Source: Candidatus Poribacteria bacterium
GTDB lineage: Bacteria; Poribacteria; WGA-4E; PCPOR2b
Assembly: GCA_965116925.1 (NCBI GenBank)
Contig: OZ220744.1
Coordinates: forward strand, 2,336,001 to 2,400,000
Reading direction: 5' to 3'
DNA length: 64,000 nt
Of this stretch, positions 16,725 to 32,790 are shown one piece after another. Position numbers and translations under genes: made by a program. The notes under the pieces were generated by a model. The model did not search any database, was not told where the DNA came from, and saw nothing but the letters and a program-made list of their open reading frames with translations. Within the stretch, counting starts at the first letter, position 1, and every line of letters begins with the position of its first letter.

Positions 16725-18203
16725 TCAGTCTGATCGTTCCGGACGCATCTGTGGGAATAGAATCACATCACGGATTGAGGTCTGATCTGTGAGCAACATG
16801 GCGAGTCGGTCGATGCCGAAGCCAAGCCCGCCTGTCGGCGGCATGCCGTACTCTAATGCTCGCAGATAGTCCTCATCGATCATCAACGCATCTTCAGCCC
16901 CATCTTCCCCCTTCTTGGCCCCCTCAATAAATCGCTCACGCTGATCTATTGGATCGTTCAGTTCACTGAAGGCGTTGCCCATCTCCATGCGAGCGATGAA
17001 GAACTCAAACCGTTCAACGAAGCGATCGCTTCCACGTTTCTTTTTGGCAAACGGCGAAATTTCGATGGGATAATCGTAAATGAATGTCGGTTGAACGAGG
17101 TTTGGTTCGACGTACGCCTCAAAGAGTTCGGCAATAAGTTTTCCTCTAGGGGCTGCACCTTCTAAATCAACGCCAGCGTCCAATACCGCATCGCGCAATT
17201 CTCCGTCGGTCAACTCATCAACATCAATGCCAGCTTCTTCCTTTATCGATTCAATCATCGTCAATCTGCGCCAAGGCGGATCGAGTGAGATAGAATCGCC
17301 TTTATAGGTGATCTGCGTTGTGCCGAGAACCGTTTGGGCAGCGTGTGCGAGTAGGTTTTCGGTTAAACACATCATATCTTGGTAGTCCGCGTATGCTTGA
17401 TAAAGCTCAATCATCGTGAATTCGGGACTGTGATCGTGGTCTATCCCTTCATTCCGAAAATCCCTCGAAAATTCATAGACCCGATCGAACCCACCGACAA
17501 TGAGTCGTTTGAGATATAACTCGTTCGCGATGCGGAGGTAGAGCGGCATATCCAAGGCGTTGTGATGTGTGGTGAACGGACGCGCTGTAGCACCTCCATA
17601 GATTGGTTGAAGGATTGGTGTTTCAACTTCAATAAAACCGTCCTGATTGAGGTATTCGCGGATGGCTTGAACCATCCGTGTGCGGTTGATGAAAACCTGC
17701 ATGACTTCGGGATTCATCATCAAATCCGCATATCGTTGACGATACCGTGTCTCCTTATTCTGTAAGCCGTGCCACTTTTCTGGGGGAGGCCGGAGGGATT
17801 TGGCAAGGAGTTCAACTTCGTTCACCAACACCGTAATTTCGCCGGTTCGGGTACGAAAAACGGCTCCATCGACACCGATAACGTCGCCAACATCAAGCTT
17901 TCTATAGACTTGATAGGCTTCTTCTCCGACTGCATTTTGACGGACATAGATCTGGAGACGACCGGTCGCATCTTGCAGGTGTGCAAATCCACTTTTGCCG
18001 TGGTCACGCTTGGTCATAATCCGTCCGGCAAGGCGAACCGATTTTGTTTCGTCCGGCTGATCTCCGACCTCCGCAAATTGTTCACGGATTTCTTGGGTTG
18101 TATGGGTCGGTGAATATTTGTAAGCGTATGGGTCTACACCGAGCTGCCGAATTTCTTCCAGCTTTTCTCGGCGTTGGTCCATCAATGCACTTGAATCTTC
18201 CAA
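16725..18203 (-). CDS. lysS: Lysine--tRNA ligase (class II)
   Basis: PEKWHGL, RYRQRY, YLRIANELYLKRL, FRNEG, YGMPPTGGLGFGIDRL. Confidence 0.97.
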   Translation of the reverse strand: MEDSSALMDQRREKLEEIRQLGVDPYAYKYSPTHTTQEIREQFAEVGDQPDETKSVRLAGRIMTKRDHGKSGFAHLQDATGRLQIYVRQNAVGEEAYQVYRKLDVGDVIGVDGAVFRTRTGEITVLVNEVELLAKSLRPPPEKWHGLQNKETRYRQRYADLMMNPEVMQVFINRTRMVQAIREYLNQDGFIEVETPILQPIYGGATARPFTTHHNALDMPLYLRIANELYLKRLIVGGFDRVYEFSRDFRNEGIDHDHSPEFTMIELYQAYADYQDMMCLTENLLAHAAQTVLGTTQITYKGDSISLDPPWRRLTMIESIKEEAGIDVDELTDGELRDAVLDAGVDLEGAAPRGKLIAELFEAYVEPNLVQPTFIYDYPIEISPFAKKKRGSDRFVERFEFFIARMEMGNAFSELNDPIDQRERFIEGAKKGEDGAEDALMIDEDYLRALEYGMPPTGGLGFGIDRLAMLLTDQTSIRDVILFPQMRPERSD

Positions 18204-18300
18204 TTGTACGTTCCTTTACAGAGATTGCTAACAAGCTAGTATAGCATTTCTATAGTCTTTCGGCAATAAAAAACTAACTATCGCGCAGGCTGCACTCCCC

Positions 18301-19408
18301 TCATTTCTTGTCGGCTTTCGCGTCTTTTAGGTAGCTTTCAATAAACTGATCTAGTTCGCCATCCATAACGGCGTCGATATTTCCAGTTTCAACGCCCGTT
18401 CGCAGATCCTTCACGAGACGGTATGGGTGAAACACGTAGGAGCGGATCTGGCTGCCGAAATTGATATCGAGCCGATCGCCTTGCAGCTTTGAGATTTCTT
18501 CGTTTCGTTGCGCTTGAAAGTATTCATAGACCCGTGACCGTAAAACCTTCATCGCCATCTCACGATTCTTGTGTTGCGATCTTTCGTTTTGGCATTGTGC
18601 GACGATTCCGGTGGGTAGATGGGTCATTCGGACTGCTGAGTCGGTGCGGTTGACATGCTGCCCACCGGCGCCGCCTGATCTATAGGTTTCGACACGCAGA
18701 TCCGCCGGATCGATTTCAACGTCAATGTTATCACTAATTTCGGGGGAGACAGCGACAGCTGCAAATGAGGTGTGACGGCGATTATTAAAATCGAAGGGAG
18801 AGAGACGCACGAGACGATGGATGCCTGCTTCTGCACGAAGATAGCCGTAGGCATACTCACCTGTGACCAAGATGGTCGCGCTCTTGATACCGGCTTCCTC
18901 GCCGGGCAGTAGTTCGATGGTTTCGGTTTTGTAGTTACGCGCCTCGCACCAGCGGAGATGCATCCGCATCAACATGGCTGCCCAGTCTTGGGATTCGGTG
19001 CCACCTGCGCCGGGATGGATGCTCAAGATTGCATTGTTCAGATCGTGCTCGCCACTGAGCATCAGTTTAAATTCAATCTCTTCAACCTCTGCCGTGATTC
19101 CTTTCAGATCCGCTTGAATTTCGTTGCTTACGGTCTGGTCATCTTCCTCAATTGCAAGTCCGAGCAGCAGTTGCAGATCTTCGAGTTGGGCGTGGAGTTT
19201 CCGATATCTCTCTACATCTTCTCGCAGGTTGGAGACCCGTTGTGTAATTTTTTGGGCATTCTGGGGATCATTCCAAAATTCGGGCTTTGCTGTTTCCTCT
19301 TGAAGGGTTTCGAGTTCTTTTTCCTTATTCGTTAAGTCAAAGATGCCCCCTAAGTTCAAGGAGTCGAGCGGTCATTCCTTCAACTTCAGATTTTAAGTCT
19401 GCGAGCAT
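18301..19408 (-). CDS. prfB: Peptide chain release factor 2, programmed +1 frameshift
   Basis: SPF and GGQ motifs; first frame MLADLKSEVEGMTARLLELRGHL (ATG 19408) ends at CTT-TGA-C (19342-19336) with internal SD AGGGGG (19351-19346). Confidence 0.97.
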
Positions 19409-19447
19409 TGTGTATGTCCTTTCTGGTCTTGAGTAGAGATATATTTA

Positions 19448-19637
19448 TAGTGGATCTTAGAATTAATTGGACACTGTAAATCGGCGAGGTTAGGCCCCCT
19501 CGCCTACCGGGGAGGGAAAAACCCGGGCAATGACCCCGGTAGGTGCGGTTTGTAACCGCACCGCATCGGCGCAGTTGGAAACAGCGCCTACCAAACACAG
19601 GTGGCGAAAGTGTCTATTTATTTTTAGAATTCACCAT
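19448..19637. mobile_element. About 190-bp TA-flanked MITE containing REP palindromes
   Basis: Ends TAGTGGATCTTAGAATTAATTGGACACT...AGTGTCTATTTATTTTTAGAATTCACCA, TA on both sides; internal GTAGGTGCGGTTTGTAACCGCACC. Confidence 0.65.
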
Positions 19638-19717
19638 AGTATTGTGTGGCGTTCTGTTTTGAATTTCCTGCTTTATTGGTCGCGCTGCCTTCCGAATCTG
19701 TGTTCATCGACTGGTGA

Positions 19718-21292
19718 TTATGCGTTTCGTCTGAGCTTGGAAGCGATCCAAGCTCGGTGGTGGTAGAGGATTAGGAGAACGCTCACAAGGAAACATAGGA
19801 TTGGGAACCAATCGCCGTAGCGCGTATAAACGGTTCCCCCGTGATTGCTCAATGGGATCCTCGCTACTAGGAAATTTTCTGTATCATTAGCTTGAATCGG
19901 CGGCGTGGTTATCCTGCCGAGCGCATCAATTATACACGATATGCCTCCGTTGGCGCAACGGAAAACGGCTACACGGTTTTCGACTGCGCGGAAGGGTGCC
20001 ATAGCAAGATGCTGTTCTGGGGCTGCTGTTCCGTCGAACCACGCATCGTTGGTAAGGATTCCCATGACGGACGCCCCTTTTTTGACAAATTTGCGGAAGA
20101 GGTTCGGGAACACGGACTCAAAGCAGATTACGACTCCCATTTGGCTGTTTTCCGTGCGAGGAATGGGAAAGAGATCGATTGATTTTCCCGGCTCAAATCC
20201 GGAGGAGAGTTGGATAAAGTTGGGGAGGTGACGGGTGATCGGGACGTATTCGCCAAAGGGGACAAGGTGCATCTTGGAGTAGCTGCCAAGTTTTTCGCTG
20301 GTCGGGGATAGCAGGAACACGGTGTTATACATTTTTCCGTCGAGGGCCGTATGCGTTCCTGTGAGCAGGTGTATCTGCCTTTCATTTAGTATCTGCTTCA
20401 ATTTTGCGAGGTAGACGTTCCCTTCAAAGATGAATATTCTGCCGTGCAGAGCGGTTTCAGGCAGCACGATGAGGTCGGGTTCTTCGGCGTCTGCTGCTTT
20501 TACTAGATTCATATATCTCTCAAAGATTTGGGGCAAGTATGTGGGATCCCACTTTTCGATCTGTGGCACATTGCCGGGGACAAGGGCAATTTTGACATCT
20601 GAGGCGGTCTTAATGGGCTTGGACAACACTTGTGCGCCGTAGATAAGGCAGGCGATGACAATCACGATGGGAATGATGCGTGAAACGTGAAACGTGAAAC
20701 GTGAAGAGGTCTTAGGGGCAGTCGGTTGGTTTTTGGATATGAAATGAGTGTGGACTATATCTGCGATTGTAGTGTTGAGGAGGACGACGATGAAACTGAT
20801 ACCGTGTACGCCTGTGAATGATGCGATCTGGATTGCTGGTAGGTTATTCCACTGCGTATAGCCCATGCTGCCCCACGGGAAACCTGTCAGAAACCAGCTT
20901 CGCACCCATTCTAACCCTATCCATATCGTAGGCACGATGAAGATGAAGGGCAGCCCGGATTTCCATGGGAGTCCATGTAGCAGCGCAGAAAAAATGCCGA
21001 AGTATACCGCGAGATAGCCTGCGAGCAGCAGGCAGGCGAATGTGGTCAGGAAGATGTTTGCAAAGGGATAGAGTAGGGCGATCCAGTAGATCAGTCCGAG
21101 GAAGAAGATTGCGCCGGTGAGGTAGCCGTGTAGAAAAGCGGACTTCCAAGTGGACGTGGATTGTAGGGCAATCAGTAGGGGGATAAGGCTGATCCATGCC
21201 AGTGGGTAGAGGTTGAAACTTGGGAAGCTGAGGATGAGTAGGATGCCGGATATACAGGCGAGGATCCAGGTTTGGTAGCGTTTTATGTGCAT
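19718..21292 (-). CDS. lnt: Apolipoprotein N-acyltransferase
   Basis: GFPW, LPETA, KMHLVPFGEYVP, ICFES, TNDAWF, RAVEN, ANGGIS. Confidence 0.95.
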   Translation of the reverse strand: MHIKRYQTWILACISGILLILSFPSFNLYPLAWISLIPLLIALQSTSTWKSAFLHGYLTGAIFFLGLIYWIALLYPFANIFLTTFACLLLAGYLAVYFGIFSALLHGLPWKSGLPFIFIVPTIWIGLEWVRSWFLTGFPWGSMGYTQWNNLPAIQIASFTGVHGISFIVVLLNTTIADIVHTHFISKNQPTAPKTSSRFTFHVSRIIPIVIVIACLIYGAQVLSKPIKTASDVKIALVPGNVPQIEKWDPTYLPQIFERYMNLVKAADAEEPDLIVLPETALHGRIFIFEGNVYLAKLKQILNERQIHLLTGTHTALDGKMYNTVFLLSPTSEKLGSYSKMHLVPFGEYVPITRHLPNFIQLSSGFEPGKSIDLFPIPRTENSQMGVVICFESVFPNLFRKFVKKGASVMGILTNDAWFDGTAAPEQHLAMAPFRAVENRVAVFRCANGGISCIIDALGRITTPPIQANDTENFLVARIPLSNHGGTVYTRYGDWFPILCFLVSVLLILYHHRAWIASKLRRNA

Positions 21293-21433
21293 ATTAGCTT
21301 AATGGAGTATTTTGAATGTATCCTTTTTTCGCTTCGAGAGCTTCGGCAATTCAGCGCACAACATTAATTTACTGAATTCGTTTTAATCAATAATTCTTTT
21401 ACTTGCTGCCTTACTTACTTCCTGTGCACAGAA

Positions 21434-21796
21434 TTATTCGTATTCGATAATTGCGGCGATTGCCGCGGTAATCTCTTGCATAAGTATTGCGCTGAGTCTG
21501 CCTCGTCTGCTAATAAAGCGTGTCACATCCACTCCCCGAATTTGCAGCGTGTCAACGGCTGAAACTTTTGTCAGGCCGTTCATACCACTGGGTTCAATAT
21601 AAACATGCCAGATGTTTCTTGAAAACCGGTTTTGCCAACCGGTGATTGGGGATACCAACTTAATCGGCAAATGTCCCACGCCGTCGGAACTAATAACTAC
21701 AGCGGGACGGATTTTCTGAATCTCTGCGCCAATCGTCGGATCGAAGTTTAGATCCCAAACCTCTCCCCGACGCGGATTAGGTGGATTTGTATTCAA
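21434..21796 (-). CDS. PemK/MazF family toxin (endoribonuclease)
   Basis: PRRGEVWDLNFDPTIGAEIQKIRPAVVIS, NGLTKVS, DTLQIRGVD; overlaps the end of the upstream gene; exact start uncertain (TTG 21796 or 21814). Confidence 0.9.
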   Translation of the reverse strand: MNTNPPNPRRGEVWDLNFDPTIGAEIQKIRPAVVISSDGVGHLPIKLVSPITGWQNRFSRNIWHVYIEPSGMNGLTKVSAVDTLQIRGVDVTRFISRRGRLSAILMQEITAAIAAIIEYE

Positions 21797-23309
21797 CGAG
21801 GTCTCCCCCTTCAAGTTCGCGCCATTCGGGATCGTTTTGGTAGTATTCGACCATCCGCTTTGCTTGTTCCCTCAGTAGGCTGCGCCTCGAATCTGTTGGT
21901 AGTTCTAAAAAAGCACGACGTTCAAGAAGCGATTGAGGTGAAGGAATTTCTAGGGTAGTATTAAGCAATTGGTCAGCTTCTCGCGCTTCTATTACTCCTT
22001 CGGAAAGCGCACGAAACACCTGCTGATGAAATCGCTCTGGTTTTTCGGAAGGTATCTCAATCGGTTCCCGTTTTTTCCAACCCAATTTGTTAATGTCCAT
22101 CCACCACCGCTTATAATGAGAGGTATTAATAATTCGCAAATCCTTCAACCGATAAAGAATTGCTTGAATACTCATTCCGTAACGCCGCTTGAGGTACAAA
22201 AGTTCCTCTAGTTGAATATGGCTTCGCTTCTCACCAACTTCCCGGCGCAAGTGCTCGGCCGGCGCGAGGAAAGCAGCACCGAATCGGAAAGCAGCTTTTT
22301 CTTCATTAATACTTTCACTCAATTTTAGGATCAGATGTCCAAGTTCGTGTACCATGTTGAGTCGATGCCGGTCTCCCGGGGTGTCTCGGCGCGTTGCGAC
22401 TGCTGCCGCCAGCACATTTTTGTCGTTATCTCGCACCACAGCAGAGATGCCATCAAAAGTTTCACTGGCATCAACCTCAATGATGTGGATGAAGTGATCT
22501 TCAAGCACACTCACAAGGTTTGCAATTGGATCAATGCCAAGGTTCCATTGCTGGCGAAGCGCGAGGGCTGCACCTTCGGCGTCTCCCAGTTTGTGGACAG
22601 GGAAACCTTGAATCGGGAGTTCAAGGCTGCTCCGTTCACCCATTCGCTCCAGTAGGGAGATCCGTTTCTCTAACACCTCAGCGACAAAACTCTGTAGCTG
22701 TTCCTGTTCTTTCTTACGCATGCGAGCTCGCTTCCGATAGGCAACCCATTCCACCTGATAAGTTGATTCGCCCCACAATTGAGCAGATTTAATTCCCAAT
22801 GCAGCAGCGATTCGATTGAGTGTCATCACCTTGGGTTGCATCTTTCCGCGTTCATATTTTGAAAGTGCTTGCTTGCTAACCAGTCCATCAATAGCAGCCT
22901 CTAGGTCGTCAAGCGACATGCCACGGGCAAGTCTAAATCGCTTCAGCCGTTCACCCACCATGATTGCAGTATCTCTTTGTTCAGTTGTAGGATCTTCTTT
23001 TCTGATGTCCATTGAAGACGATTTCTTGCGTGTCGAGGATTTCAGGATTTTACCGGAAGCCTCCATCACTCCAATTGTTGTGTCTTTGTAGTGCTCCAAA
23101 GCCGCCTCAGTGGCTTTGGCGTCCACCCCAACCACGTAAACAGGACCTCTGTATCCTCTAAGCTGCTGGGCGGCATTTGTAACAGTGTCGGCTGTCTCTA
23201 CCTCAATGATTTGATGAGGCGTTTTAATATCTGGACCTGGGCCCTGATTATAAGAAACGCCTTCCCGAGCCGCGATAAGTTTGGCAGTTTTGTCATGTTT
23301 GGTTGGCAT
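21777..23309 (-). CDS. XRE-HTH / ImmA-IrrE metallopeptidase fusion with extra N-terminal domain and antitoxin-like C-terminal tail
   Basis: HTH: GERLKRFRLARGMSLDDL...VSKQALSKYERG; zinc motif HELGH (HExxH), FGAAFLAP; about 95-aa N-terminal domain; tail RRSLLREQAKRMVEYYQNDPEWRELEGGD. Confidence 0.85.
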   Translation of the reverse strand: MPTKHDKTAKLIAAREGVSYNQGPGPDIKTPHQIIEVETADTVTNAAQQLRGYRGPVYVVGVDAKATEAALEHYKDTTIGVMEASGKILKSSTRKKSSSMDIRKEDPTTEQRDTAIMVGERLKRFRLARGMSLDDLEAAIDGLVSKQALSKYERGKMQPKVMTLNRIAAALGIKSAQLWGESTYQVEWVAYRKRARMRKKEQEQLQSFVAEVLEKRISLLERMGERSSLELPIQGFPVHKLGDAEGAALALRQQWNLGIDPIANLVSVLEDHFIHIIEVDASETFDGISAVVRDNDKNVLAAAVATRRDTPGDRHRLNMVHELGHLILKLSESINEEKAAFRFGAAFLAPAEHLRREVGEKRSHIQLEELLYLKRRYGMSIQAILYRLKDLRIINTSHYKRWWMDINKLGWKKREPIEIPSEKPERFHQQVFRALSEGVIEAREADQLLNTTLEIPSPQSLLERRAFLELPTDSRRSLLREQAKRMVEYYQNDPEWRELEGGDLVEYKST

Positions 23310-23373
23310 TATTTTGTCCTCACATGGTATTCAATGAAGAATTGAGTTTACAAACAGCCCTCAAATCTGCCTA

Positions 23374-23402
23374 ATTATGAATCAAACGGATTAATTTTTC
23401 AA
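23374..23402 (-). promoter_or_regulatory. Sigma70 promoter of the XRE-peptidase/MazF operon
   Basis: TTGAAA-17 nt-CATAAT on the minus strand; region homologous to the pAgo promoter. Confidence 0.7.
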
Positions 23403-23592
23403 GGGAAAAAAAACTAAGGAGAAGAGGGATTTCTTGCACAGTCAAAGTGGGGCAAGGAGGAGGATGCTAGAGAGGCAGTAGGTAACTATTGAATTGAGTT
23501 CAAAAATCAACCGTCGTCATTAGTGTCACATAGATTATCTTTGATATGAGACTTCTGTGGGAGTTGGAAAAGATTTTTCATCAATAGGATCT

Positions 23593-24504
23593 TTATCTTA
23601 GCCGGTCTAATCTTTTTTTTAATTCTGACCGATTAAAGCCTTTTATTCTAAACACCCAATCGACGATCTTCTCTTTAAACAGATTAAGGATTTTTATTTT
23701 ATCTAGCATAATCCCCATCAATCCAACAATTAGGATTCCTATTAGAGGAACAAAAATCTGAATAACACCAATAATTGGTTCTGCTTCAGTCCATTTTCTG
23801 ATGATTAAGGGGACCAACCAATAAGATATAGAACCGAAAAGAAGAACGCTCACCACCATTATGGTGATTTTGACACGGCGTTCAGTTCTTTCTATGAAAC
23901 GAACAAAAGCATCTCTTATATAACCGATGGCTTCCACTTGATGAACAATCGGATAATCCACCAATGCTTTTGAGTACGCTTGTTCGATTACATAAAAATC
24001 CCTCAAATCTGATGTTTCTAGCAAGGCGTGCAGTAAAAGAGGTTGCCATTCTTCCTGTGGAAATTCGCCCTTGTAAAGATCTAACGCGACTTTGTCAATG
24101 GATCTCTGGGGTTGCGGTGGATTAGAAGAGATATCTGGAAACAAGCGGTTGAGAATATAAAAATCCCTTGTTGAATGATTCTGGCAATATGATTTTAGAT
24201 TTCCCCTTTCTAGTTCAACATTATCTATCGCCATTGCGGATAGGTCAATTAAATTCTTCGTGTAGTGCATCCCGCTTATTGGTCGCTTTCTCCTTTGTGC
24301 TTCTATCAAGTTTGTTAAGTCTTCTTTCGACGGAATACCAGTGCAGAAAATTGAAAGGCAAATTTTTTCAATCTCAGCCAAATCGCCTTCTGTTGGATAA
24401 TTCAAAGGTTTCCTCACTAAAAATCCATAAAACGCTCGTTCCTTTAAGCTGGACTTATCAAGAAGAATCTGCTGTTGTTTTCTTAATTCATCAGTGATGG
24501 GCAT
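23593..24504 (-). CDS. Argonaute-associated membrane protein (putative effector), 303 aa
   Basis: ATG 1 nt after the pAgo stop; soluble N-terminal domain, two C-terminal hydrophobic helices (ITIMVVSVLLFGSISYWLVPLII; IIGVIQIFVPLIGILIVGLMGIML), basic tail; AT-rich like pAgo. Confidence 0.75.
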   Translation of the reverse strand: MPITDELRKQQQILLDKSSLKERAFYGFLVRKPLNYPTEGDLAEIEKICLSIFCTGIPSKEDLTNLIEAQRRKRPISGMHYTKNLIDLSAMAIDNVELERGNLKSYCQNHSTRDFYILNRLFPDISSNPPQPQRSIDKVALDLYKGEFPQEEWQPLLLHALLETSDLRDFYVIEQAYSKALVDYPIVHQVEAIGYIRDAFVRFIERTERRVKITIMVVSVLLFGSISYWLVPLIIRKWTEAEPIIGVIQIFVPLIGILIVGLMGIMLDKIKILNLFKEKIVDWVFRIKGFNRSELKKRLDRLR

Positions 24505-24505
24505 C

Positions 24506-26533
24506 TTATATGAACCAAAGTTTATCATTTAATTTATCCAGAATCGCATAGTCCCAATCGGGTACTTTTTTAAGTTCATATACCATTTTCGCCATGAGGT
24601 TTGGATATTTTATGGTAACAGGTTTACTAGCAGGAATAAATGAACGGTAAGAAAGGTGAGTAAAATAAAGTACTTGTCTCGTGATTTCGTAAATGTCCCT
24701 GTATTCTGACCTTTTATCCAATCGTACCTGTATTGGAACAACAGAACGACCTCCCAAGTGAAGCAGTGCTTGTCGATATGACAACTGAATAAACGTTCCG
24801 CGAGCCGGTGCGTGGCGTCCTTGATTCGCGAAAATTCTGAAGTTGTGATTGTAGCTGAGATGCACCAGACTATATTGAATATCATACGCCTTAAAATGTT
24901 TGAGGGCATTACTAACAGCTTCCAATTCATACTCCCTGCCCGCCTCCTTAAATAAGTGAAATATAAGTCGAACCCTATCTCCTTCTGATAAACCTTGCTT
25001 ATCGAAAGCTTGCACCAGAGTATCTATAAGATACCTTTCAAGATTTTTTGCATATTCGCCCATTGTGCTTAATTGGCTACAATCTCCAACAAGATACGTA
25101 CCATTATAATCAAAAACGTTGGCAAAACCGATAATCCATTCTCCACTATCGTCAGTCGTGGACCCGACTCCTATAATGAGCTCAGAGATATCTTTTTGAG
25201 ATTTCTCTATTGTCCACGCTGTACCCCCGAGTTTAGAATAGACATTGAGAGCAAAATCATTGTTTATAATATCATCATTTTTTCTAAGAACCTCTATTGT
25301 TAGATCTTGAGTTGGTAGTCGTTGGTTCAATAACTTCGCTTTTGTCAAATAATAGGGGGACCGAAGCGTATCAATTTCCTTGTCCTGCTGAGAGAGAAGG
25401 ATGATAGCCAAATTATAATCATTGGCATCTATCTTATCTAAAACGTCAAGGTAAGTTTCTTGCGATTTCACTGTTTTCAGATGAAATTTAACATTCTTTA
25501 AATGGAACAAATCTCGCAATTTATTACCCAATGTCACGATATATTCTTCGATGCTTCCTTCATATTCATCAGGAGAGACAACAAGAATATTCAACCTTTC
25601 ATTGCTAAAAAGATCGAGTGAATACGGACCCAATTCGGATACAACCTCGTTGTAATATCCCGGTCTACTCCTTTCATTGTAATAAAAGTACTTGGGTTTC
25701 CGGATACATGTTGAATTAAAAGAGGCACTTGGCAGGTTAACAAGTATGAAGTTTGAGATTTCCAGTCCGTTTGGAATATAAAGCTTTGATGCAACTTTGT
25801 TGAAGTTCTCAGCACACTTTTTAAGATATTCAAATTCATTACTTGACGATTCTATTCGGTCAAGGTATTTTTCGTAATCTTGCTGCAGTCCTGTCGATTC
25901 TAAGTATCTATAGAGATTATGAGCTGAAGCGACAATTTCTCCTTTATCATTTCGCGTCAACCCACGGGTATCTGTTAAATGACTCGTTATTACTTCTTCA
26001 CTACCAGTAAAAATTGGTTTCATGCGTCTTCTAACAGTTAAAGCAATAACTTGTCTTTTTTCCAGTTTGGAGTAAAGGTTCCTAAGAGAAAATACTAAAG
26101 TTGGCTGCAGAGATAAAGCTCCAAATTGCCTCCGTTTCTCGCTCTTTGATTCGACTTCCCAAGTCGAAGAGTGTTTTTGCCAAAAAACTCGATAATCATT
26201 GCTTCTGAAAAACGTCACAATAGCAAACTCTACGATTTTTGTGAAAATCGGAGCATGTTCTTTAATAGTTATTGTGGCTTCCTCAAAAATGCCAGGCAAT
26301 GATTCGCTAGTTGGCTGAATTTTCCAGATGTATAAGTCACCAGCAGATCTGTAGATGAAGAAATCCGGGTGCTTCTTATACTTAGTGTACAGATCATCTG
26401 AATACGCTGCCTTTAGCAAAGACAGCTTATCTTTATTGAAAACCGTCTCTAAAAAATTGAGCGTCAATCCCTGTCCTATTGGCATAGATTCTTGGGGAAT
26501 ACGGCGGGCAGCTGTGTTATATTTCGTTGACAT
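24506..26533 (-). CDS. Prokaryotic Argonaute, long-B (RsAgo-like), catalytically inactive PIWI
   Basis: MID 5'-phosphate pocket Y-K-Q-K (YYLTKAKLLNQRLPTQ...NVYSKLGG); PIWI motifs PARGT, QVLYFTHLSYRS, PVTIKY, terminal LWFI; catalytic Asp positions replaced (IIGVGS, IFHLFK). Confidence 0.92.
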   Translation of the reverse strand: MSTKYNTAARRIPQESMPIGQGLTLNFLETVFNKDKLSLLKAAYSDDLYTKYKKHPDFFIYRSAGDLYIWKIQPTSESLPGIFEEATITIKEHAPIFTKIVEFAIVTFFRSNDYRVFWQKHSSTWEVESKSEKRRQFGALSLQPTLVFSLRNLYSKLEKRQVIALTVRRRMKPIFTGSEEVITSHLTDTRGLTRNDKGEIVASAHNLYRYLESTGLQQDYEKYLDRIESSSNEFEYLKKCAENFNKVASKLYIPNGLEISNFILVNLPSASFNSTCIRKPKYFYYNERSRPGYYNEVVSELGPYSLDLFSNERLNILVVSPDEYEGSIEEYIVTLGNKLRDLFHLKNVKFHLKTVKSQETYLDVLDKIDANDYNLAIILLSQQDKEIDTLRSPYYLTKAKLLNQRLPTQDLTIEVLRKNDDIINNDFALNVYSKLGGTAWTIEKSQKDISELIIGVGSTTDDSGEWIIGFANVFDYNGTYLVGDCSQLSTMGEYAKNLERYLIDTLVQAFDKQGLSEGDRVRLIFHLFKEAGREYELEAVSNALKHFKAYDIQYSLVHLSYNHNFRIFANQGRHAPARGTFIQLSYRQALLHLGGRSVVPIQVRLDKRSEYRDIYEITRQVLYFTHLSYRSFIPASKPVTIKYPNLMAKMVYELKKVPDWDYAILDKLNDKLWFI

Positions 26534-26589
26534 TTTCCTACTCCTTAATAATATGAATTTGGTTTACAAAAATTTGAGAAAATCGCCAT

Positions 26590-26618
26590 ATTATAAACCA
26601 AACAAATTAATTTAGCAA
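26590..26618 (-). promoter_or_regulatory. Sigma70 promoter of the pAgo operon
   Basis: TTGCTA-17 nt-TATAAT on the minus strand; AGGAG upstream of the pAgo ATG. Confidence 0.75.
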
Positions 26619-26926
26619 GGAAAAAAGGATCTGCTGCAAAATTAAAGTAGGAATAGGAGGGATACTACTGGAGTTCAGGCTGAATTCTGCGTAACGATTT
26701 ACAAATCAGTTACTACAAAGAAGGGGCTGCGTTTCCACGGAATAGGTTTTTCTATCTTGAGAGGAGGTATCAGTAAGGTATTTGACGGGCGGGAAACCCC
26801 GCCCCTACAGGAAGGATAACCGATGGATTTTCAATAAGTAGCAACTCGGGTTTGCATAACAATCTTGATTTAGACACTGGTTTAAATATCCAATGGCATT
26901 ACACTTCTTCCCTTCAATCCGGCGAT

Positions 26927-29146
26927 TTAGGAAGCATCGCCATAAAATGACTGATTTAACGTCTTATCTTCCTCACTGACACCAAAATCCCCGTCCTCTA
27001 TCTCAGAAAGGTTTACATACAATTGGTTCTTATCCAATAGTTTCGCTAGACATTTCTTCTGTTTGTCTATCCCGTTTTCATCTTGACCGATTTCGATGAA
27101 ATCCTCCACCGCATCTTCCGGGACTTCCGGATTCACGTACCAGTTTAGGAATGAGTTTTCAGCGATGTCCCACCAGATTGCGACAAGTTCTTCAGAGGAT
27201 TGAGCGACTTTGATTTTGTCCATAAAGGCTTGATTGTATGGCATCAGTTCGCAATAGATGAAATCGCCGCCGCCCTGATAGTTGACGGATTTGGAGATCC
27301 CGCCGGTGTCGTAGTCAATTTCTTCGATTGGCTTTCCCTCTGCCTTAACTTTTTTGCCGACAGCTTTTTTGAGCCTCCCCATTGTGATGGTTTCCGTGTA
27401 ATCCATCTGTTCAATCGTAATCCATTGTCGGTTCATCTTGTGGGCAACCGCGGCGGTGGTAGCAGAACCTGCGAAGAAGTCGATAACAAGGTCTCCCTCA
27501 ATTGTTGACATTTCTATAATGCGCTTAATTGTTTCTTCAGGTTTCGGGTTGTCAAAGGTTTTGCCATCAAACAACCGTTTCAAGTGTAAAGTTCCCCTTT
27601 CGGAGTTAACTTCTTTATCCCACCATACAGAACGAGCCATACGAGAAGTACCTCGATATTTTTCAACTATTTGATAACGATTCTTCTCTTGCATCGCTTT
27701 GCCACAGATATTGGTATTGAGGTTTTGTTGCGATTTCTCCTTACCCCAACGCCAAACGGTTTGTACGCCCTGAGACTTTGCCGGCAATACTTCGACGAAT
27801 CCTTGATTTTTTTCTAAAGCAATTTCAAAAAAACCATTCTTATCCTGATTCTTCGGATTAAGATAAAAAGGATATACGAGATTTGGACGATTTTTATCAT
27901 TGAACTTTATATTTCTGTTCCGAAGTTCTCTTATCTCAAACCCCCCCCCTTCATCTTCATAAGGAAAGGTTTTATCTTTGTCTTCAATTGGATAAATTTT
28001 ATAGCTATTTGACCTTGAAAAAACATTAATGAATTCGTGCATGTTTGCCACTCCACCATAATCCCTGCCACGAGGATTATTGACTACAGTGATTACCTCA
28101 ATAAAATTTTCATTACCGAGTACCTCGTCCATCAAAACTTTGAGGTACGCTTGCTCGTTATCATCACATTGAACAAAAATAACCCCGTCGTCCCGTAACA
28201 ATTCTCTCGCTACTTCTAACCGATTTTTCATAAACGTCAGCCATGAGGAATGATTAAAGCTATCGTTATAGCCGAAACTATCGCTTCCTGTGTTATACGG
28301 TGGGTCAATGTAAATCAGTTTGACCTTTCCGCGAAACTGGGTTTTCAGAGTGTGCAATGCCAGTAGGTTGTTCCCTTTGATAAGCAAGTTTTCCCGAATT
28401 ACGCCGTTACCATCCCGCTTAATCTCTGTCACCTTCCCCTCACCGTCAGTCGTGTAGCGTTTCCAACCAGTCAACACTTTTGGGTCAAAGAGGCGGTCAA
28501 TCTCGTCTTGCGCTAGGATTTCATTAAAAAATATTTCTTGGCGCTTCTCCTCCTCCTTTGTTTGTCCACCTTCTAGTACACAGTCTTTGTAGGGCCAAAC
28601 CAGAGAAACTTCACCCCGTTCAGGCAGAAATTTGTCCTCAACCTTCAAGCCGATTTTGTTGCGGAAGCGGGTGTAGGAATTGGCGAGGAAGTTTTTGTCG
28701 GAGATGTAGTCAATGAAGGTATTGGTGTTGAAGATATAGTGCCCTTCGATCTCGTCAAAGAATTTTGCCTTCATGTCCGCATCACCCAGCAGCAGCCTCA
28801 CGAAGTCATGGTCAATCTTCCACGCCCGATCTATCACCGCCGCCTTGACTAGCTCGCTTTCGTTGTCAATGAAGCGGCGATCAGTTTTGAGGATGTTGGT
28901 TAATTTTTCGTGAAAAGGCTTTGGCGTGTTAGCATGGCTTTTTCCGGAGGTCGCTGAAGGCAGTGTACTGCCATCTTGTTGATATAGTTCGACGGTCTCC
29001 TCAACAATGCGGCATAGCTCTGAGAAAACCTCTTGTTCATTATCCCCGTGACAGCCACCATAAAAGAGTCCGGGACAACTGCCAACATAGCATTGGTCTT
29101 CATCAGACCATTCGACAATTTTGACGTAACGGTTGCTTGTATTCAT
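26927..29146 (-). CDS. mod: Type III R-M adenine methyltransferase (Mod) with N-terminally fused HicB antitoxin domain
   Basis: IYIDPPYNTG and DFFAGSATT motifs, central TRD; residues 1 to about 70 are HicB-like (YVKIVEWSDEDQCYVGSCPGL...CHGDNEQEV), in frame with no stop. Confidence 0.88.
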   Translation of the reverse strand: MNTSNRYVKIVEWSDEDQCYVGSCPGLFYGGCHGDNEQEVFSELCRIVEETVELYQQDGSTLPSATSGKSHANTPKPFHEKLTNILKTDRRFIDNESELVKAAVIDRAWKIDHDFVRLLLGDADMKAKFFDEIEGHYIFNTNTFIDYISDKNFLANSYTRFRNKIGLKVEDKFLPERGEVSLVWPYKDCVLEGGQTKEEEKRQEIFFNEILAQDEIDRLFDPKVLTGWKRYTTDGEGKVTEIKRDGNGVIRENLLIKGNNLLALHTLKTQFRGKVKLIYIDPPYNTGSDSFGYNDSFNHSSWLTFMKNRLEVARELLRDDGVIFVQCDDNEQAYLKVLMDEVLGNENFIEVITVVNNPRGRDYGGVANMHEFINVFSRSNSYKIYPIEDKDKTFPYEDEGGGFEIRELRNRNIKFNDKNRPNLVYPFYLNPKNQDKNGFFEIALEKNQGFVEVLPAKSQGVQTVWRWGKEKSQQNLNTNICGKAMQEKNRYQIVEKYRGTSRMARSVWWDKEVNSERGTLHLKRLFDGKTFDNPKPEETIKRIIEMSTIEGDLVIDFFAGSATTAAVAHKMNRQWITIEQMDYTETITMGRLKKAVGKKVKAEGKPIEEIDYDTGGISKSVNYQGGGDFIYCELMPYNQAFMDKIKVAQSSEELVAIWWDIAENSFLNWYVNPEVPEDAVEDFIEIGQDENGIDKQKKCLAKLLDKNQLYVNLSEIEDGDFGVSEEDKTLNQSFYGDAS
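27941..27949 (-). repeat. G9 homopolymer inside mod
   Basis: Nine C on the + strand, encoding GGG of EDEGGGF. Confidence 0.7.
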
Positions 29147-29340
29147 TTTTTCGATTCCTCAATAGCGGCTTTGACAGCTTTTTCCTGATAGTGCTTTGCG
29201 TCAGCACGGAGTTGGCCTGAGAGTATCACAGATTTAGGAACTTTCGGATGGACAAATTTCCGATGACTCCCTTTTCCGCCACGGTTTACAAATCCAGCAG
29301 TTTCAAGGTCTTTGGTGAGCTCTCTTATCTTACGTGGCAT
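29143..29340 (-). CDS. hicA: HicA family toxin
   Basis: GFVNRGGKGSHRKFVHP signature; ATGA overlap with the HicB-Mod fusion. Confidence 0.9.
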   Translation of the reverse strand: MPRKIRELTKDLETAGFVNRGGKGSHRKFVHPKVPKSVILSGQLRADAKHYQEKAVKAAIEESKK

Positions 29341-29522
29341 CTGCTATCTGTGCTTGTCTGTAAGTTCATTGGTTTGTTAGTGAGCGTTGGGTTTCACTCT
29401 GGTTATCTGTAAGCGATGTTGTTGAAAAGTAAAAACTTTACTGTTCTTGATAGCGAGACACTTTCAACCGTTCAACCTAACCTACAATACTTGAGGTTAC
29501 GGCATACAGAGTATGCCTACTA

Positions 29523-32075
29523 CTATAACACGGACTCAAGACTTTCCCTGAATTGTCTTTCATCTTGGTTGTCATAGAATGGCACACCAATCAGTCGGTA
29601 TTTTTGCATCCCGCGTTGCGTATTAAACTCCAGAACCTCCCCTGCAAATTTTTCTTTAATTTGTTCTAAGAAGTCCGCTTTCCATTTTTCGTGTTTTTGC
29701 AGATACTTTCCCTTGGGTTCAATAAATATCTGACGGATGAGGGTGTTTCCGTTTTTCTCATGCAGAAACAGAACAAAATCGGGCTCAAACCCCTCTCCGT
29801 CGTCAAAGTTGTAAATTTTGAAATGCCTTTCGTTACGGATCAGATATATCCCGTCGTATTCCCTCTTTAACTCGTCCATTTGGGCGTCAAGCATTCGGAC
29901 AAATGCCTTTTCTTCACTGGTGCCGTAATTGGCATTGAATACATACCACTCTCTATCGGAGACCAACTGTTCGTCGCCATCCGCCCTTTCGTTGCCTTCA
30001 ACCAATTTAAGGATTTTGTCGGTGAAGATTGAATTGATATTGCTTGGCTCAAACGTTTCTGTGCCTTTGTATTCGGTTCTGTTTTGACGCAATTCAGATG
30101 CAATTTGATTAAGCAATCCTGTCATCGCATCAAGGTAAGTTTCATTAGACAACAGGTATCGTTCATCGCCCTGAAGGGTGATTGACAACCCACCCAAGTA
30201 TTCATCCGCCTTAATGAACTGGCGGACGGATTGAATATGTGGGAAATAGGTTTTCAGAGACTTGAAAGCAAAAAAAGGATTTCGTGCAATAGCAGCTCTG
30301 ACGATATGGAACGGTATATCTCCTACCGGAATATTTCTCCGACCTGATTCTACAATCTGTTGAACCTCACCGCTGTCCTCCAGAACCGCCTCAGAAACAC
30401 CCCTACCGGTGGCGAGTGAATAGCGGTAATTCTTCAAGGAAACGTCGAGATCGGCAAATGAACGGACAGATTCATTCCTGTTCTTAACCCGTTCATTGAT
30501 GTAGATAATCCCGCGCTTGTAAAAATCGGTCTCCTTAAACTCACTTTTTAGCTTAAGGGGTTTTTCAACCGTCCGCTCGTCAAGTATCCCTTCGTCAATT
30601 AGGGCGGTACGGATTTCAGAGATATAGCGGGAATCGTTGACACTGTGATAGTGGAGCTCTTCCAACACCCGTAGTTCCGTCGTAAGATTTTTGTCGAATT
30701 TCCGTCGGTATTGATCCGGATAGTCATCGGTAGCAAAGGGGAAGTACCGCGCTCCGCGTCCGATTAGTTGCGCTTCTGCAATTGTTGTTTTGCCCGGTTT
30801 TCCTGCCCTTGCGTCGCGGGTGGTGTAGCACCGAACAATATCAAACAGATTTAAGACATCCCAACCTTCATCCAGTTTACGCACGGCAAAGATAGCGCGG
30901 ATGCGGTTGTTGGGGTCCTCAAGCGTGTTGATCCGAATCTGATAGTTCTTTTCGTCTTGTTCCTTGTTGACTGAGAGGCAGTATGCTCTCTGAAATTCCT
31001 GTTTTAGACGTCCGACCAGATTGATGTTATTCTCGTCAAAAAATTGAAATGCCCGTTGAACCAGTGGAATATTCGATTGACGGATATTGGCAATGTGCGC
31101 TGCTGTGAGACCATCAATGAGTCTGTGAAACTTCTCCTTGTTCGCTTCTGATTCGTCAATTTTGCGCTGTGCCTTAAACAGAATCACCGGCTTGAGGTTA
31201 ATCTGATGTTTTGCCGCTACCTCCTGTTTATACTGATTGAGAATCAGTGCCTGTATGATGCGATCTCTTTCCTCAAAATCTGCCTGAACGATAAAGACAT
31301 CTTTGGAATAGCCGTCATTGCGGAACTGCCGTAGATCATACTTATATAATACCTTGTTGCGGTATTTATCGGCAAGGCTGCGATGGTTATAATCGAGGGT
31401 GGCAGTAAATTCTAGCAGCAAGTTGTCTGGATTTTGACTAAAGATACGCTCTACCGTATTTTCCCAGCTTTCTATCAACTCCTGTCCGGCTTTCGTACTG
31501 GTGTTGATATGGTGTGCCTCATCAGCTAAGAGCACAATCTTTTTGTCCTTGAAATCCTCGAACGTTAAAGCATTTTCTTTCTGTGTATTCAGATCGATAT
31601 GCAGCTGTTGGATGGTGGTGAAGCAGATATTGATGTCGTTTTCGTTGACACCCTCAAAATTGGGGACCGGTGTCACGGGGACACGCATCGATCCGAAATG
31701 GAGGGTTTCATTGAACAGGTATTTAGAGGACAGAGGATTGAGGAAATTGTCCTTTGTCTTTTCGATGATATTGGTGGAGTTGACGAAGAAGATAAAATTT
31801 CGATAGCCTTTTTCATAGAGATAGAGGATCAAGCCCGCCATGATGAGCGTTTTACCGCTGCCGGTCGCCATATTGAACAGAAGATGCAGGGGCTTTTCTT
31901 TGCCCGGAAAGTGATTGTCAAGGCAATAAAAGAAACGTGCAAAGGCTTCTTCCTGATACGGGCGGAGGTCAAACTTGGGATTCAGATTGTCTTTGAGATA
32001 GTTGGGAATTTCCTTTTCCAAAAATCCCATTTCGGATACATTATCAAGTCTTTGGTACAAAAACTGTTCAGCCAT
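29523..32075 (-). CDS. res: Type III restriction enzyme Res subunit (SF2 helicase plus PD-(D/E)xK nuclease)
   Basis: MATGSGKT, DEAH, EFTAT, LDEGWDVLNLFDIVR, QLIGRGAR, EPDF...IEPKG. Confidence 0.92.
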   Translation of the reverse strand: MAEQFLYQRLDNVSEMGFLEKEIPNYLKDNLNPKFDLRPYQEEAFARFFYCLDNHFPGKEKPLHLLFNMATGSGKTLIMAGLILYLYEKGYRNFIFFVNSTNIIEKTKDNFLNPLSSKYLFNETLHFGSMRVPVTPVPNFEGVNENDINICFTTIQQLHIDLNTQKENALTFEDFKDKKIVLLADEAHHINTSTKAGQELIESWENTVERIFSQNPDNLLLEFTATLDYNHRSLADKYRNKVLYKYDLRQFRNDGYSKDVFIVQADFEERDRIIQALILNQYKQEVAAKHQINLKPVILFKAQRKIDESEANKEKFHRLIDGLTAAHIANIRQSNIPLVQRAFQFFDENNINLVGRLKQEFQRAYCLSVNKEQDEKNYQIRINTLEDPNNRIRAIFAVRKLDEGWDVLNLFDIVRCYTTRDARAGKPGKTTIAEAQLIGRGARYFPFATDDYPDQYRRKFDKNLTTELRVLEELHYHSVNDSRYISEIRTALIDEGILDERTVEKPLKLKSEFKETDFYKRGIIYINERVKNRNESVRSFADLDVSLKNYRYSLATGRGVSEAVLEDSGEVQQIVESGRRNIPVGDIPFHIVRAAIARNPFFAFKSLKTYFPHIQSVRQFIKADEYLGGLSITLQGDERYLLSNETYLDAMTGLLNQIASELRQNRTEYKGTETFEPSNINSIFTDKILKLVEGNERADGDEQLVSDREWYVFNANYGTSEEKAFVRMLDAQMDELKREYDGIYLIRNERHFKIYNFDDGEGFEPDFVLFLHEKNGNTLIRQIFIEPKGKYLQKHEKWKADFLEQIKEKFAGEVLEFNTQRGMQKYRLIGVPFYDNQDERQFRESLESVL

Positions 32076-32201: not shown

Positions 32202-32574
32202 AATAAGAGAATCTCAACTCTCTTGTTGGTCCATCTGGATAAATGCTAGGCACGGTTGCCGCCGTAGTGGGAGAAGCTTCTAGCCTTGATATGCGTTCTC
32301 AAGTGCTGCACCGCTGTGATTCAGCCAATAATCCGTGCAATCTGTGCCATCAGTTTAATCCGCGATTCAGACAAGGGATACATGTCGCCCCTCTGGGGCT
32401 AAATGCACCAATGCACCATCTCCCGTCTCCCGTTCCGTTTTCTATCCTGTAAATCCTTCAATCCCCGATGAAGCATCGGGACTAAGAAGCCTGAAGATCC
32501 TGATTCAGACAATAATGCGGAGTTACGGCACACGGAGTGTGCCTACTACTATAAAAAGAAAAAATCCTCCGGTG

Positions 32575-32790
32575 TCAAATGCAACAGCTTTTTAGGCAAT
32601 TTTCAACGATACGACACAGCTCTGAGAACACTTCTTGTTCATTATCTCCGTGACAGCCACCATAAAAGAGTCCCGGACAACTGCCAACATAGCATTGGTC
32701 TTCATCAGACCATTCGACAATCTTGACGTAACGGCTGCTTGTATTCATTTTTTTGATTCCTCAATAGCGGCTTTGACAGCCCTTTCTTGT
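32575..32790 (-). pseudogene. Truncated duplicate of hicA 3' end plus hicB 5' part
   Basis: About 190-bp direct repeat of 29001-29188 (offset 3602); hicB copy 32748-32575 stops after 57 aa; only the last ~14 hicA codons remain. Confidence 0.85.

Follow-up and report, generated by a model that had tools for sequence, protein, structure and literature searches.

A catalytically inactive long-B Argonaute and a co-directional membrane protein with a candidate MCU-like pore module in a Poribacteria-lineage bacterium

By the definition of Song et al. (2023, PMC10620215), a BPAM system consists of a long-B prokaryotic Argonaute (pAgo) and, encoded downstream of it, a trans-membrane protein that belongs to orthogroup og_100. 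In the example from Elizabethkingia anophelis, EaBPAM, viability is reduced about 10^3-fold, and this loss requires both EaAgo and the C-terminal 106-amino-acid (aa) transmembrane (TM) region of the 301-aa protein EabAgaM; the available part of that report describes cell death only, and gives no account of membrane depolarisation (PMC10620215). In the literature searched, BPAM is the least understood of the long-B Argonaute systems: one example kills cells, and no structure, effector fold or mechanism is reported. The present study concerns two genes on the minus strand of a 64,000-nucleotide (nt) stretch of the genome of Candidatus Poribacteria bacterium (assembly GCA_965116925.1, contig OZ220744.1, positions 2,336,001 to 2,400,000), which is referred to as the window and to which all coordinates refer unless a related locus is named. 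The genes encode a pAgo and a 303-aa membrane protein, called the effector below. The pair is proposed, with a probability of roughly 0.55, to be a BPAM-type abortive-infection module whose effector is a cation channel resembling the mitochondrial calcium uniporter (MCU, Pfam PF04678).

The pAgo open reading frame (ORF; 24506-26533, minus strand, 675 aa) is followed in the same direction by the effector ORF (23593-24504, minus strand, 303 aa), which starts with the ATG at 24504 and ends with the stop codon at 23593-23595. At the junction (24502..24508, minus strand) the sequence reads TGG TTC ATA TAA g ATG, in which a single base separates the stop codon of the pAgo from the start codon of the effector. 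This is the arrangement given by the original prediction, an earlier reading of the bare sequence, and it makes translational coupling of the two genes likely. The gap is also 0-1 nt in three related loci (L002, L023 and L021), as judged from ORF and tblastn coordinates. An in-frame ATG at 24528 would give a 311-aa effector; the 303-aa reading was preferred because 50 close relatives align from the methionine at 24504, which is nearly invariant among them.

The pAgo (24506..26533, minus strand) matched the Pfam Piwi family (E 8.7e-15) and, over residues 21-675, the PADLOC pAgo model PDLC02395 (E 5.9e-220), and fell under the cut-off of the NCBIfam argonaute model (140 of 700 bits). Its nearest relatives of solved structure were EcAgo of EcBPAN (23wq, E 2.4e-40) and RsAgo (E ~1e-29), both of them catalytically inactive long-B pAgos, followed by AfPiwi; the alignment to EcAgo and RsAgo spans residues 151-674. 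Residues Y394, K398, Q409 and K434 align with identical residues of RsAgo, and presumably form the 5'-phosphate pocket of the MID domain. The segment LIIGVGS (452-458) was aligned on ELVIGIGS of EcAgo and ELVVGMG of RsAgo, and RLIFHLFK (522-529) on RLIFHVQVK and VRVVFHAHR, respectively. Since these PIWI motifs match those of EcAgo and RsAgo, the alignment having included inactive Agos only, the catalytic aspartates of the DEDX tetrad are taken to be lost. The alignments agree in both respects with the original prediction, which had described a 675-aa pAgo with the Y-K-Q-K residues of MID and with no catalytic aspartates (IIGVGS, IFHLFK). With a PIWI domain, a full-length N-to-PIWI architecture and long-B proteins as its closest relatives, the protein is assigned to the long-B class. 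The pAgo that adjoins one member of the effector family, WP_093920437.1, has been catalogued as longB with a small PAZ (Ryazansky 2018).

The AlphaFold2 (AF2) model of the effector (mean pLDDT 81.4) places ten helices within residues 1-183, followed by an unbroken helix at 186-236, a loop, and helices at 242-262, 271-287 and 292-302. The N-terminal domain (aa 1-185; 23950..24504, minus strand) is predicted to be all-helical and cytoplasmic, mostly with pLDDT 82-96, and the family alignments display the conserved motifs S19-x-K21-E22-x2-F-Y26 and H80-Y81 as well as D166 and D169. A long helix follows (aa 186-237; 23794..23949, minus strand; DSSP helix 186-236), in which a basic juxtamembrane segment (196-216, net charge +3) runs into TM1 (hydropathy peak 217-235). 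The inter-helix motif W238-T-E-A-E242-P243 (23776..23793, minus strand), a version of the family motif W-[D/N/T/A/E]-x-x-E-P, leads to the proposed pore-lining helix TM2 (aa 244-266; 23707..23775, minus strand; hydropathy peak 244-262, modelled helix 242-262), and the protein ends in basic helices (aa 267-303; 23596..23706, minus strand; net charge +7) with a conserved K288-G289-F-N motif. As the segments ahead of TM1 (+3) and behind TM2 (+7) are basic and the loop between the two helices is short, both termini are placed in the cytoplasm. The soluble N-terminal part, two TM helices and basic tail read earlier from the sequence are recovered in these profiles.

No match to the effector was found in Pfam, PADLOC, NCBIfam or PHROGs, the profile of its close relatives (A1) had no match among PDB sequences, and a search of the ESM Atlas gave no usable match. 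Foldseek comparison of the AF2 model with the PDB, a check that had been proposed in advance, returned nothing at E <= 0.001. In VIA-align the N-terminal domain gave weak matches to alpha/alpha-toroid-like proteins (Z 5.7-6.9 over ~175-180 residues), which lie under the stated noise level for helical proteins, and the C-terminal part gave generic coiled coils only. The claim that the N-terminal domain matches no recognised family is upheld by these results; the broader claim, that the effector is unrecognised, holds for this domain and fails for the C-terminal module, which is remotely MCU-like. The N-terminal domain is proposed to be a sensor or gate, and would be the natural candidate for sensing the activated pAgo.

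A word-indexed search returned 53 effector relatives (42-100% identity), none of which is named or has a Pfam domain, and a family profile matched 94 clusters at E <= 0.001 (32 at E <= 1e-30) among 1.84 billion representatives. Family members are mostly ~290-330 aa long, with a C-terminal hydrophobic peak in most full-length representatives. Named sources were Sunxiuqinia elliptica, Xanthocytophaga, Saccharophagus degradans, and metagenome-assembled genomes (MAGs) of Flavobacteriales, Rhodothermaceae and Poribacteria. Effector matches were present in 4/61 related genomes, one of these being a 39-aa remnant, and two full-length matches were present in 401 genomes of another phylum. Ten weak TM-only matches in Bacteroidota-group genomes (E 2.5e-5 to 9e-4) were rejected as noise, with no W-x-x-x-E-P-type loop; the sole regular-expression match for the loop among them (L017) was unconvincing.

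A TM protein found mostly without pAgo had been named in advance as an outcome that would speak against the pairing. In each of the seven independent loci inspected besides the window, a pAgo sequence was present directly upstream of the effector homologue, and an effector without pAgo was seen in none of them (0/7). The pair is intact in four of the seven: L002, L003 (the same place as L006 and L022), L023, and L021 from a Bacteroidota-group genome (G122), where the effector is 22% and the pAgo 40% identical to those of the window. Gene order and spacing in L021 are the same as in the window, and its phylum is that of the Rhodothermaceae genome. In L004 (the same place as L009) the contig ends upstream of the effector, and only the final 28 residues of the pAgo are left there. 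In L001 (2434-6000, Poribacteria MAG) the effector gene is intact and pAgo residues 15-177 and 631-675 are left, split by ~2.9 kb with two IS3-family (rve) transposase genes. In L024 (G001:C1:4920000-4933000, from a genome of the same genus) the syntenic island has retained genes for MazF, a helix-turn-helix (HTH)-M78 protein and Type III restriction-modification at 81-87% DNA identity, and is without a stretch matching 23694-25593 of the window; the deletion covers residues ~320-675 of the pAgo and 1-268 of the effector, with loss of the C-terminal half of the pAgo and most of the effector.

The comparison with MCU was begun because a PF04678 annotation, already computed, is attached to P0146, which matches the family profile at the borderline (E 7.8e-4) and in its C-terminal region only. 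When 69 diverse family members (alignment A2) were scanned against Pfam at E <= 1, MCU was the commonest family, with matches in 12/69 and a best E of 2.2e-9, and the runner-up matched 7/69, at best with E 0.028. When 78 members were scanned at E <= 0.05, ten matched MCU, all collinearly, from protein positions ~180-295 to profile positions ~60-177 of 177. The strongest match was that of P0095, which at 38.1 bits (E 2.2e-9) exceeds the curated cut-off of 30.8, and further matches were those of P0146 (2.7e-6), P0118 (1.8e-5), P0135 (2.1e-5) and P0063 (2.2e-5). P0095 and P0063 also match the subfamily profile of the window effector over near full length (E 1.6e-29 and 1.5e-62, respectively). In the reciprocal direction, the best match of the 69-member profile among PDB sequences was a fungal MCU, 6d7w_A (E 1.2e-4), and MCU entries made up 13 of the best 30 matches. 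In this alignment WDklEP lies on the selectivity-filter motif WDTMEP, 'kklyrklgid' on 'kklyqmkgid', TM1 on TM1 and TM2 on TM2, and K288-G289-F-N of the window effector is aligned with the post-TM2 helix and KGID of the fungal protein. As A2 contained P0146, the alignment was rebuilt from 55 members (E <= about 1e-20), with P0146 and weaker members removed; 6d7w_A was still the best match (E 3.6e-4), and 13 of the 28 matches at E <= 1 were MCU.

The loop motif was highly conserved among 50 close relatives, with W238 and E242 each present in 50/50 and P243 in 48/50; the second motif position was D in 26, N in 11, T in 5 (the window included), A in 4 and E in 4. Among the 69 diverse members, 55 have [W/Y]-x3or5-E-[P/A], many with a two-residue insertion (WDxxxxEP). 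The C-terminal 120 residues of the family resemble MCU, of which 6d7w, 6dnf and 6o58 are solved structures, in their order of elements, namely a long helix, TM1, W-D/x-x-x-E-P, TM2 and a helix with KG[IF]D. In mitochondria both termini of MCU are on the electrically negative side, and the same applies to the predicted topology of the effector. Unlike MCU, the effector is bacterial, pAgo-linked and ~300 aa long, with an unrelated N-terminal domain; MCU homologues in some bacteria are reportedly noted in the uniporter literature. Taken together, these alignments indicate that the C-terminal module of the effector is quite probably homologous to the MCU pore. No published statement tying MCU to Argonaute or to anti-phage defence was found in a search whose scope excluded subscription journals and the supplementary figures of Song 2023, and the MCU-like pore module in this family appears to be previously unremarked.

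The pair had been assigned a BPAM-type architecture from the outset, and the present data agree: in a simple operon with 1-nt spacing, the gene of a long-B pAgo directly precedes that of a ~300-aa protein whose TM region is C-terminal. Because the architecture is the same and pAgo is directly upstream in 7/7 related loci, the pair fits the BPAM class. As in EaBPAM, an inactive long-B pAgo and an effector of very similar length (303 versus 301 aa) form a two-gene operon, and as in EabAgaM, a helical unannotated N-terminal part precedes a C-terminal two-TM region of ~100 aa. However, the inter-TM loop of EabAgaM, judged by eye, is without W-x-x-x-E-P, and EabAgaM was absent from the 94 representatives matched by the family profile, as judged by two 8-residue motifs. 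Searches seeded with A2 or with P0076 yielded close relatives only, and did not reach EabAgaM. To the eye, the effector and EabAgaM have local patterns in common, such as K-x-x-x-F-x-x-x-L close to the N-terminus and, ahead of a hydrophobic helix, P-x-K-G; these serve as a lead only. The motif check, the inspection by eye and the orthogroup listing suggest that the window effector and EabAgaM are remote relatives at most.

Orthogroup og_100 comprises 20 accessions, WP_078690883.1 among them, in the part of the catalogue available (Ryazansky et al. 2018, PMC6299218). Thirty family representatives were traced; four clusters gave protein accessions, none of which is in the og_100 list. One of the proteins, WP_093920438.1 of Sunxiuqinia elliptica, belongs to the 90% cluster of P0073 (E 8.8e-38 against the window's subfamily profile) and adjoins the catalogued long-B pAgo WP_093920437.1; in the same part of the catalogue it is listed with orthogroup '-', not 100 (PMC6299218). 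By this listing the effector family would be distinct from the catalogued og_100, at least for one traceable member. On this ground the earlier proposal of a new effector class is partly right. The novelty lies in this member outside og_100 and in the MCU-like pore module; systems of the BPAM kind were already known.

Activation of a membrane effector by an Argonaute, leading to abortive infection, is reportedly a property of SiAgo-Aga1-Aga2 of Sulfolobus islandicus, a system said to have been described by Zeng et al. in 2022; unlike the pAgo of the window, SiAgo is a short pAgo and is said to need the Aga1 adaptor. The pAgos of EcBPAN (EcAgo with EcbAgaN; 23wq) and RsAgo share the inactive PIWI motifs of the window pAgo, but the effector of EcBPAN is a PD-(D/E)XK nuclease. 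According to the available part of a recent report, which touches on BPAM only briefly, the pAgo-binding N-terminal domain of EcbAgaN is not found in TM effectors (NAR 2026, PMC13535254).

These comparisons lead to a proposed mechanism, in which a Poribacteria-lineage bacterium would have acquired the pair horizontally and would carry it, within a defence island, as a two-gene abortive-infection module of the BPAM type. By analogy with RsAgo and EcBPAN, the inactive long-B pAgo would use its intact 5'-phosphate pocket to load small nucleic acids as guides and would recognise nucleic acid of an invading plasmid or phage, and the recognition signal would pass to the co-translated 303-aa effector. 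The effector would reside in the inner membrane, with both ends cytoplasmic and the W-T-E-A-E-P loop periplasmic. Its C-terminal ~120 residues, as a remote homologue of the MCU pore module, would form an oligomeric, MCU-like channel for cations, its mouth ringed by E242 residues, which the N-terminal helical domain would keep shut. Upon opening, cations (Ca2+ or others) would enter the cytoplasm down the membrane potential, the potential would collapse, and the infected cell would stop or die. Inward conduction of cations is expected because the predicted topology relative to the membrane potential is that of MCU, and collapse of the potential would explain a TM-dependent abortive-infection phenotype. 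Target binding might in this way result in membrane depolarisation, as the original prediction had envisaged.

Several observations weigh against this reading, and most of them concern the MCU likeness. The window effector itself had no match to PF04678 at E <= 0.01 or at E <= 1, and is thus under the curated cut-off, a six-frame search of the complete genome from which the window comes gave no PF04678 match at E <= 10, and the A1 subfamily profile found no MCU chain in the PDB at E <= 10. As the window effector and the A1 profile both miss MCU, the link is transitive, via more distant family members, and only 1/78 members exceeds the Pfam cut-off. Weak PF04678 matches are unspecific, being present in 11/14 control genomes (none over the cut-off), and odorant receptors, PsbZ and designed TM bundles score E 0.015-0.07, level with most MCU matches; only 6d7w_A stands clear of unrelated membrane proteins in both profile-versus-PDB searches. 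No MCU chain appeared in Foldseek (PDB, E <= 0.001) or among the best 50 matches listed for each of two VIA-align runs, for which a monomeric hairpin is a poor probe. The window motif, WTEAEP, has T239 in place of the first acidic residue of MCU, and the motif is missing in 12/69 diverse members, including the pAgo-linked protein of G122, so that a selective filter would not be universal in the family. The oligomeric state, conduction and defence phenotype of the effector rest on prediction, and EaBPAM kills also without an invader plasmid, according to the available part of its description (PMC10620215). The missing direct match, the matches in control genomes, the equal scores of unrelated TM proteins, the members without the motif and the lack of an MCU fold match would all be expected if the effector of a BPAM-type abortive pair were a generic membrane disrupter that renders the membrane leaky by oligomerising or inserting, as proposed for SiAga2 or holin-like proteins, with its MCU likeness due to convergence or to the composition of two-TM hairpins. 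This is a serious alternative, but is considered unlikely: P0095 exceeds the curated MCU cut-off (E 2.2e-9), the ten matches run collinearly for ~110 residues, helices outside the membrane included, the reciprocal best PDB match is MCU with WDxxEP and KG[IF]D in register, and a tryptophan and a glutamate invariant in 50/50 close relatives would not be needed by a non-specific disrupter.

The pair might also not be a suicide system, if the inactive pAgo acted in RsAgo-like plasmid interference and the effector only anchored or localised it at the inner membrane, the point of entry of foreign DNA, with no killing role for the N-terminal domain. RsAgo-type long-B pAgos do lower plasmid expression without a described effector, and the N-terminal domain has no toxin-like family match. 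In the available part of the EaBPAM report a stable complex of EaAgo with EabAgaM was not detected, which agrees with mere anchoring and also counts against the channel module (Song et al., PMC10620215). Such a role is nevertheless very unlikely, since EaBPAM kills only with the TM region present (PMC10620215), the conserved W-x-x-x-E-P loop would be unnecessary for an anchor, and the pair has decayed in 2/7 related loci, by insertion-sequence (IS) insertion and by deletion, which fits a costly toxic module. The same decay, seen as pAgo and effector deletions in the same-genus island L024 and as the IS-disrupted pAgo of L001, might be taken to mean that the window locus is itself a decaying, non-functional remnant, the more so as the first acidic filter position is T in the window effector and its four closest relatives. 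This is likewise very unlikely, given that both window ORFs are full length without stops and all other conserved effector positions are kept; moreover, WTEAEP is common to 5/50 relatives at 74-100% identity, which suggests a maintained variant and not a lesion. A BPAM-type module with an MCU-like channel effector is the reading preferred here.

An MCU-like pore provides a concrete and mutable hypothesis for BPAM, with an E242 ring, potential-driven cation influx and possible sensitivity to uniporter blockers. If true, it would assign a role to the MCU-like proteins of bacteria and would have a bearing on the origin of the mitochondrial uniporter pore. It is suggested tentatively, and with more doubt than the module itself, that bacterial relatives of the MCU pore are executioner channels of Argonaute immunity, and that the eukaryotic uniporter pore descends from, or shares ancestry with, a prokaryotic abortive-infection effector. 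In that case MCU would join the eukaryotic machines with roots in bacterial immune systems. In practical terms, a ~300-aa ion channel triggered by nucleic acid would be attractive as the output module of a biosensor. As a separate observation, P0146 / P0175 (325 aa, metagenomic) is bacterial, matches PF04678 below the threshold (28 bits), carries a WNQLEP loop, and has an N-terminal region without a match to the effector family. MCU-like pore modules may be joined to other sensor domains in bacteria.

The guanine-plus-cytosine (GC) content was 0.367-0.395 across 23500-26499, compared with 0.471-0.514 across 17000-22999, which bears out the AT-richness relative to the host noted earlier for both genes. 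The higher-GC stretch to the left of the pair holds the housekeeping genes lysS, prfB and lnt (named from their translations). The neighbours of the pair are all defence or toxin-antitoxin genes, as identified with Pfam, PADLOC and NCBIfam. The GC contrast, the sporadic presence (4/61 genomes) and these neighbours are the grounds for regarding the pair as mobile. Downstream lies a gene for a 510-aa HTH_3 and Peptidase_M78 protein (21780-23309, minus strand), which matches 14 PADLOC RmrA models (best E 1e-43) and is under the cut-off of the NCBIfam 'spr1629 family repressor/antitoxin' model; it is overlapped by the downstream gene for a MazF/PemK toxin (21437-21814, minus strand). From these matches the two genes look like a Rosmer-like or toxin-antitoxin pair with MazF as the toxin. 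On the other side of the pair are genes for a Type III methylase (Mod; 26930-29146), a HicA toxin (29146-29340) and a Type III restriction enzyme (29526-32075).

Upstream of the pAgo gene, the region 26534..26660 (minus strand) contains a promoter-like TTGCTA-17-TATAAT at 26618-26590. It is ~75% identical to 23310-23440, the region 5' of the HTH-peptidase gene, in an alignment read by eye, and the shared part includes the hexamers TTGCTA/TTGAAA-17-TATAAT/CATAAT and a common TTTGTAAAC. A promoter scan gave 14 sites, compared with 10.5 +/- 3.3 in shuffled sequences; the scan alone is weak evidence. The two regions are a possible shared operator, and as the ~130 nt upstream of the two operons are ~75% identical, the HTH protein may control both of them.

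The Type III restriction gene is bracketed by direct repeats of 187 nt (29001-29187 and 32603-32789, 93% identical) and of 33 nt (29496-29528 and 32522-32554, 91%). The right copy encodes a 57-aa ORF (32575-32748) that is nearly identical to the first ~48 residues of Mod. The start of Mod overlaps the HicA gene, and the N-terminus of Mod may be a captured HicB-like piece; Pfam found nothing in Mod residues 1-110. In L021 (869-9900) the pair is flanked on one side by genes for a 644-aa DNA methylase (N6_N4_Mtase) and a DUF1828/DUF1829 protein, and on the other by a gene for an 889-aa ResIII and RE_endonuc protein. As methylase and ResIII genes bracket that pair, Type III-like restriction-modification flanks it as in the window. 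Immediately ahead of the pAgo gene in the Poribacteria relatives stand two genes, one with a PAPS_reduct domain and one for an HNH_2 endonuclease (L002, 2152-3907; L023, 2241-4030). The same two-gene set, judged by ORF size, is present in L022 (7839-9614) and L001 (1464-2372), and is absent from the window. The set overlaps the pAgo start in L023, and these loci of the Poribacteria relatives may be four-gene operons.

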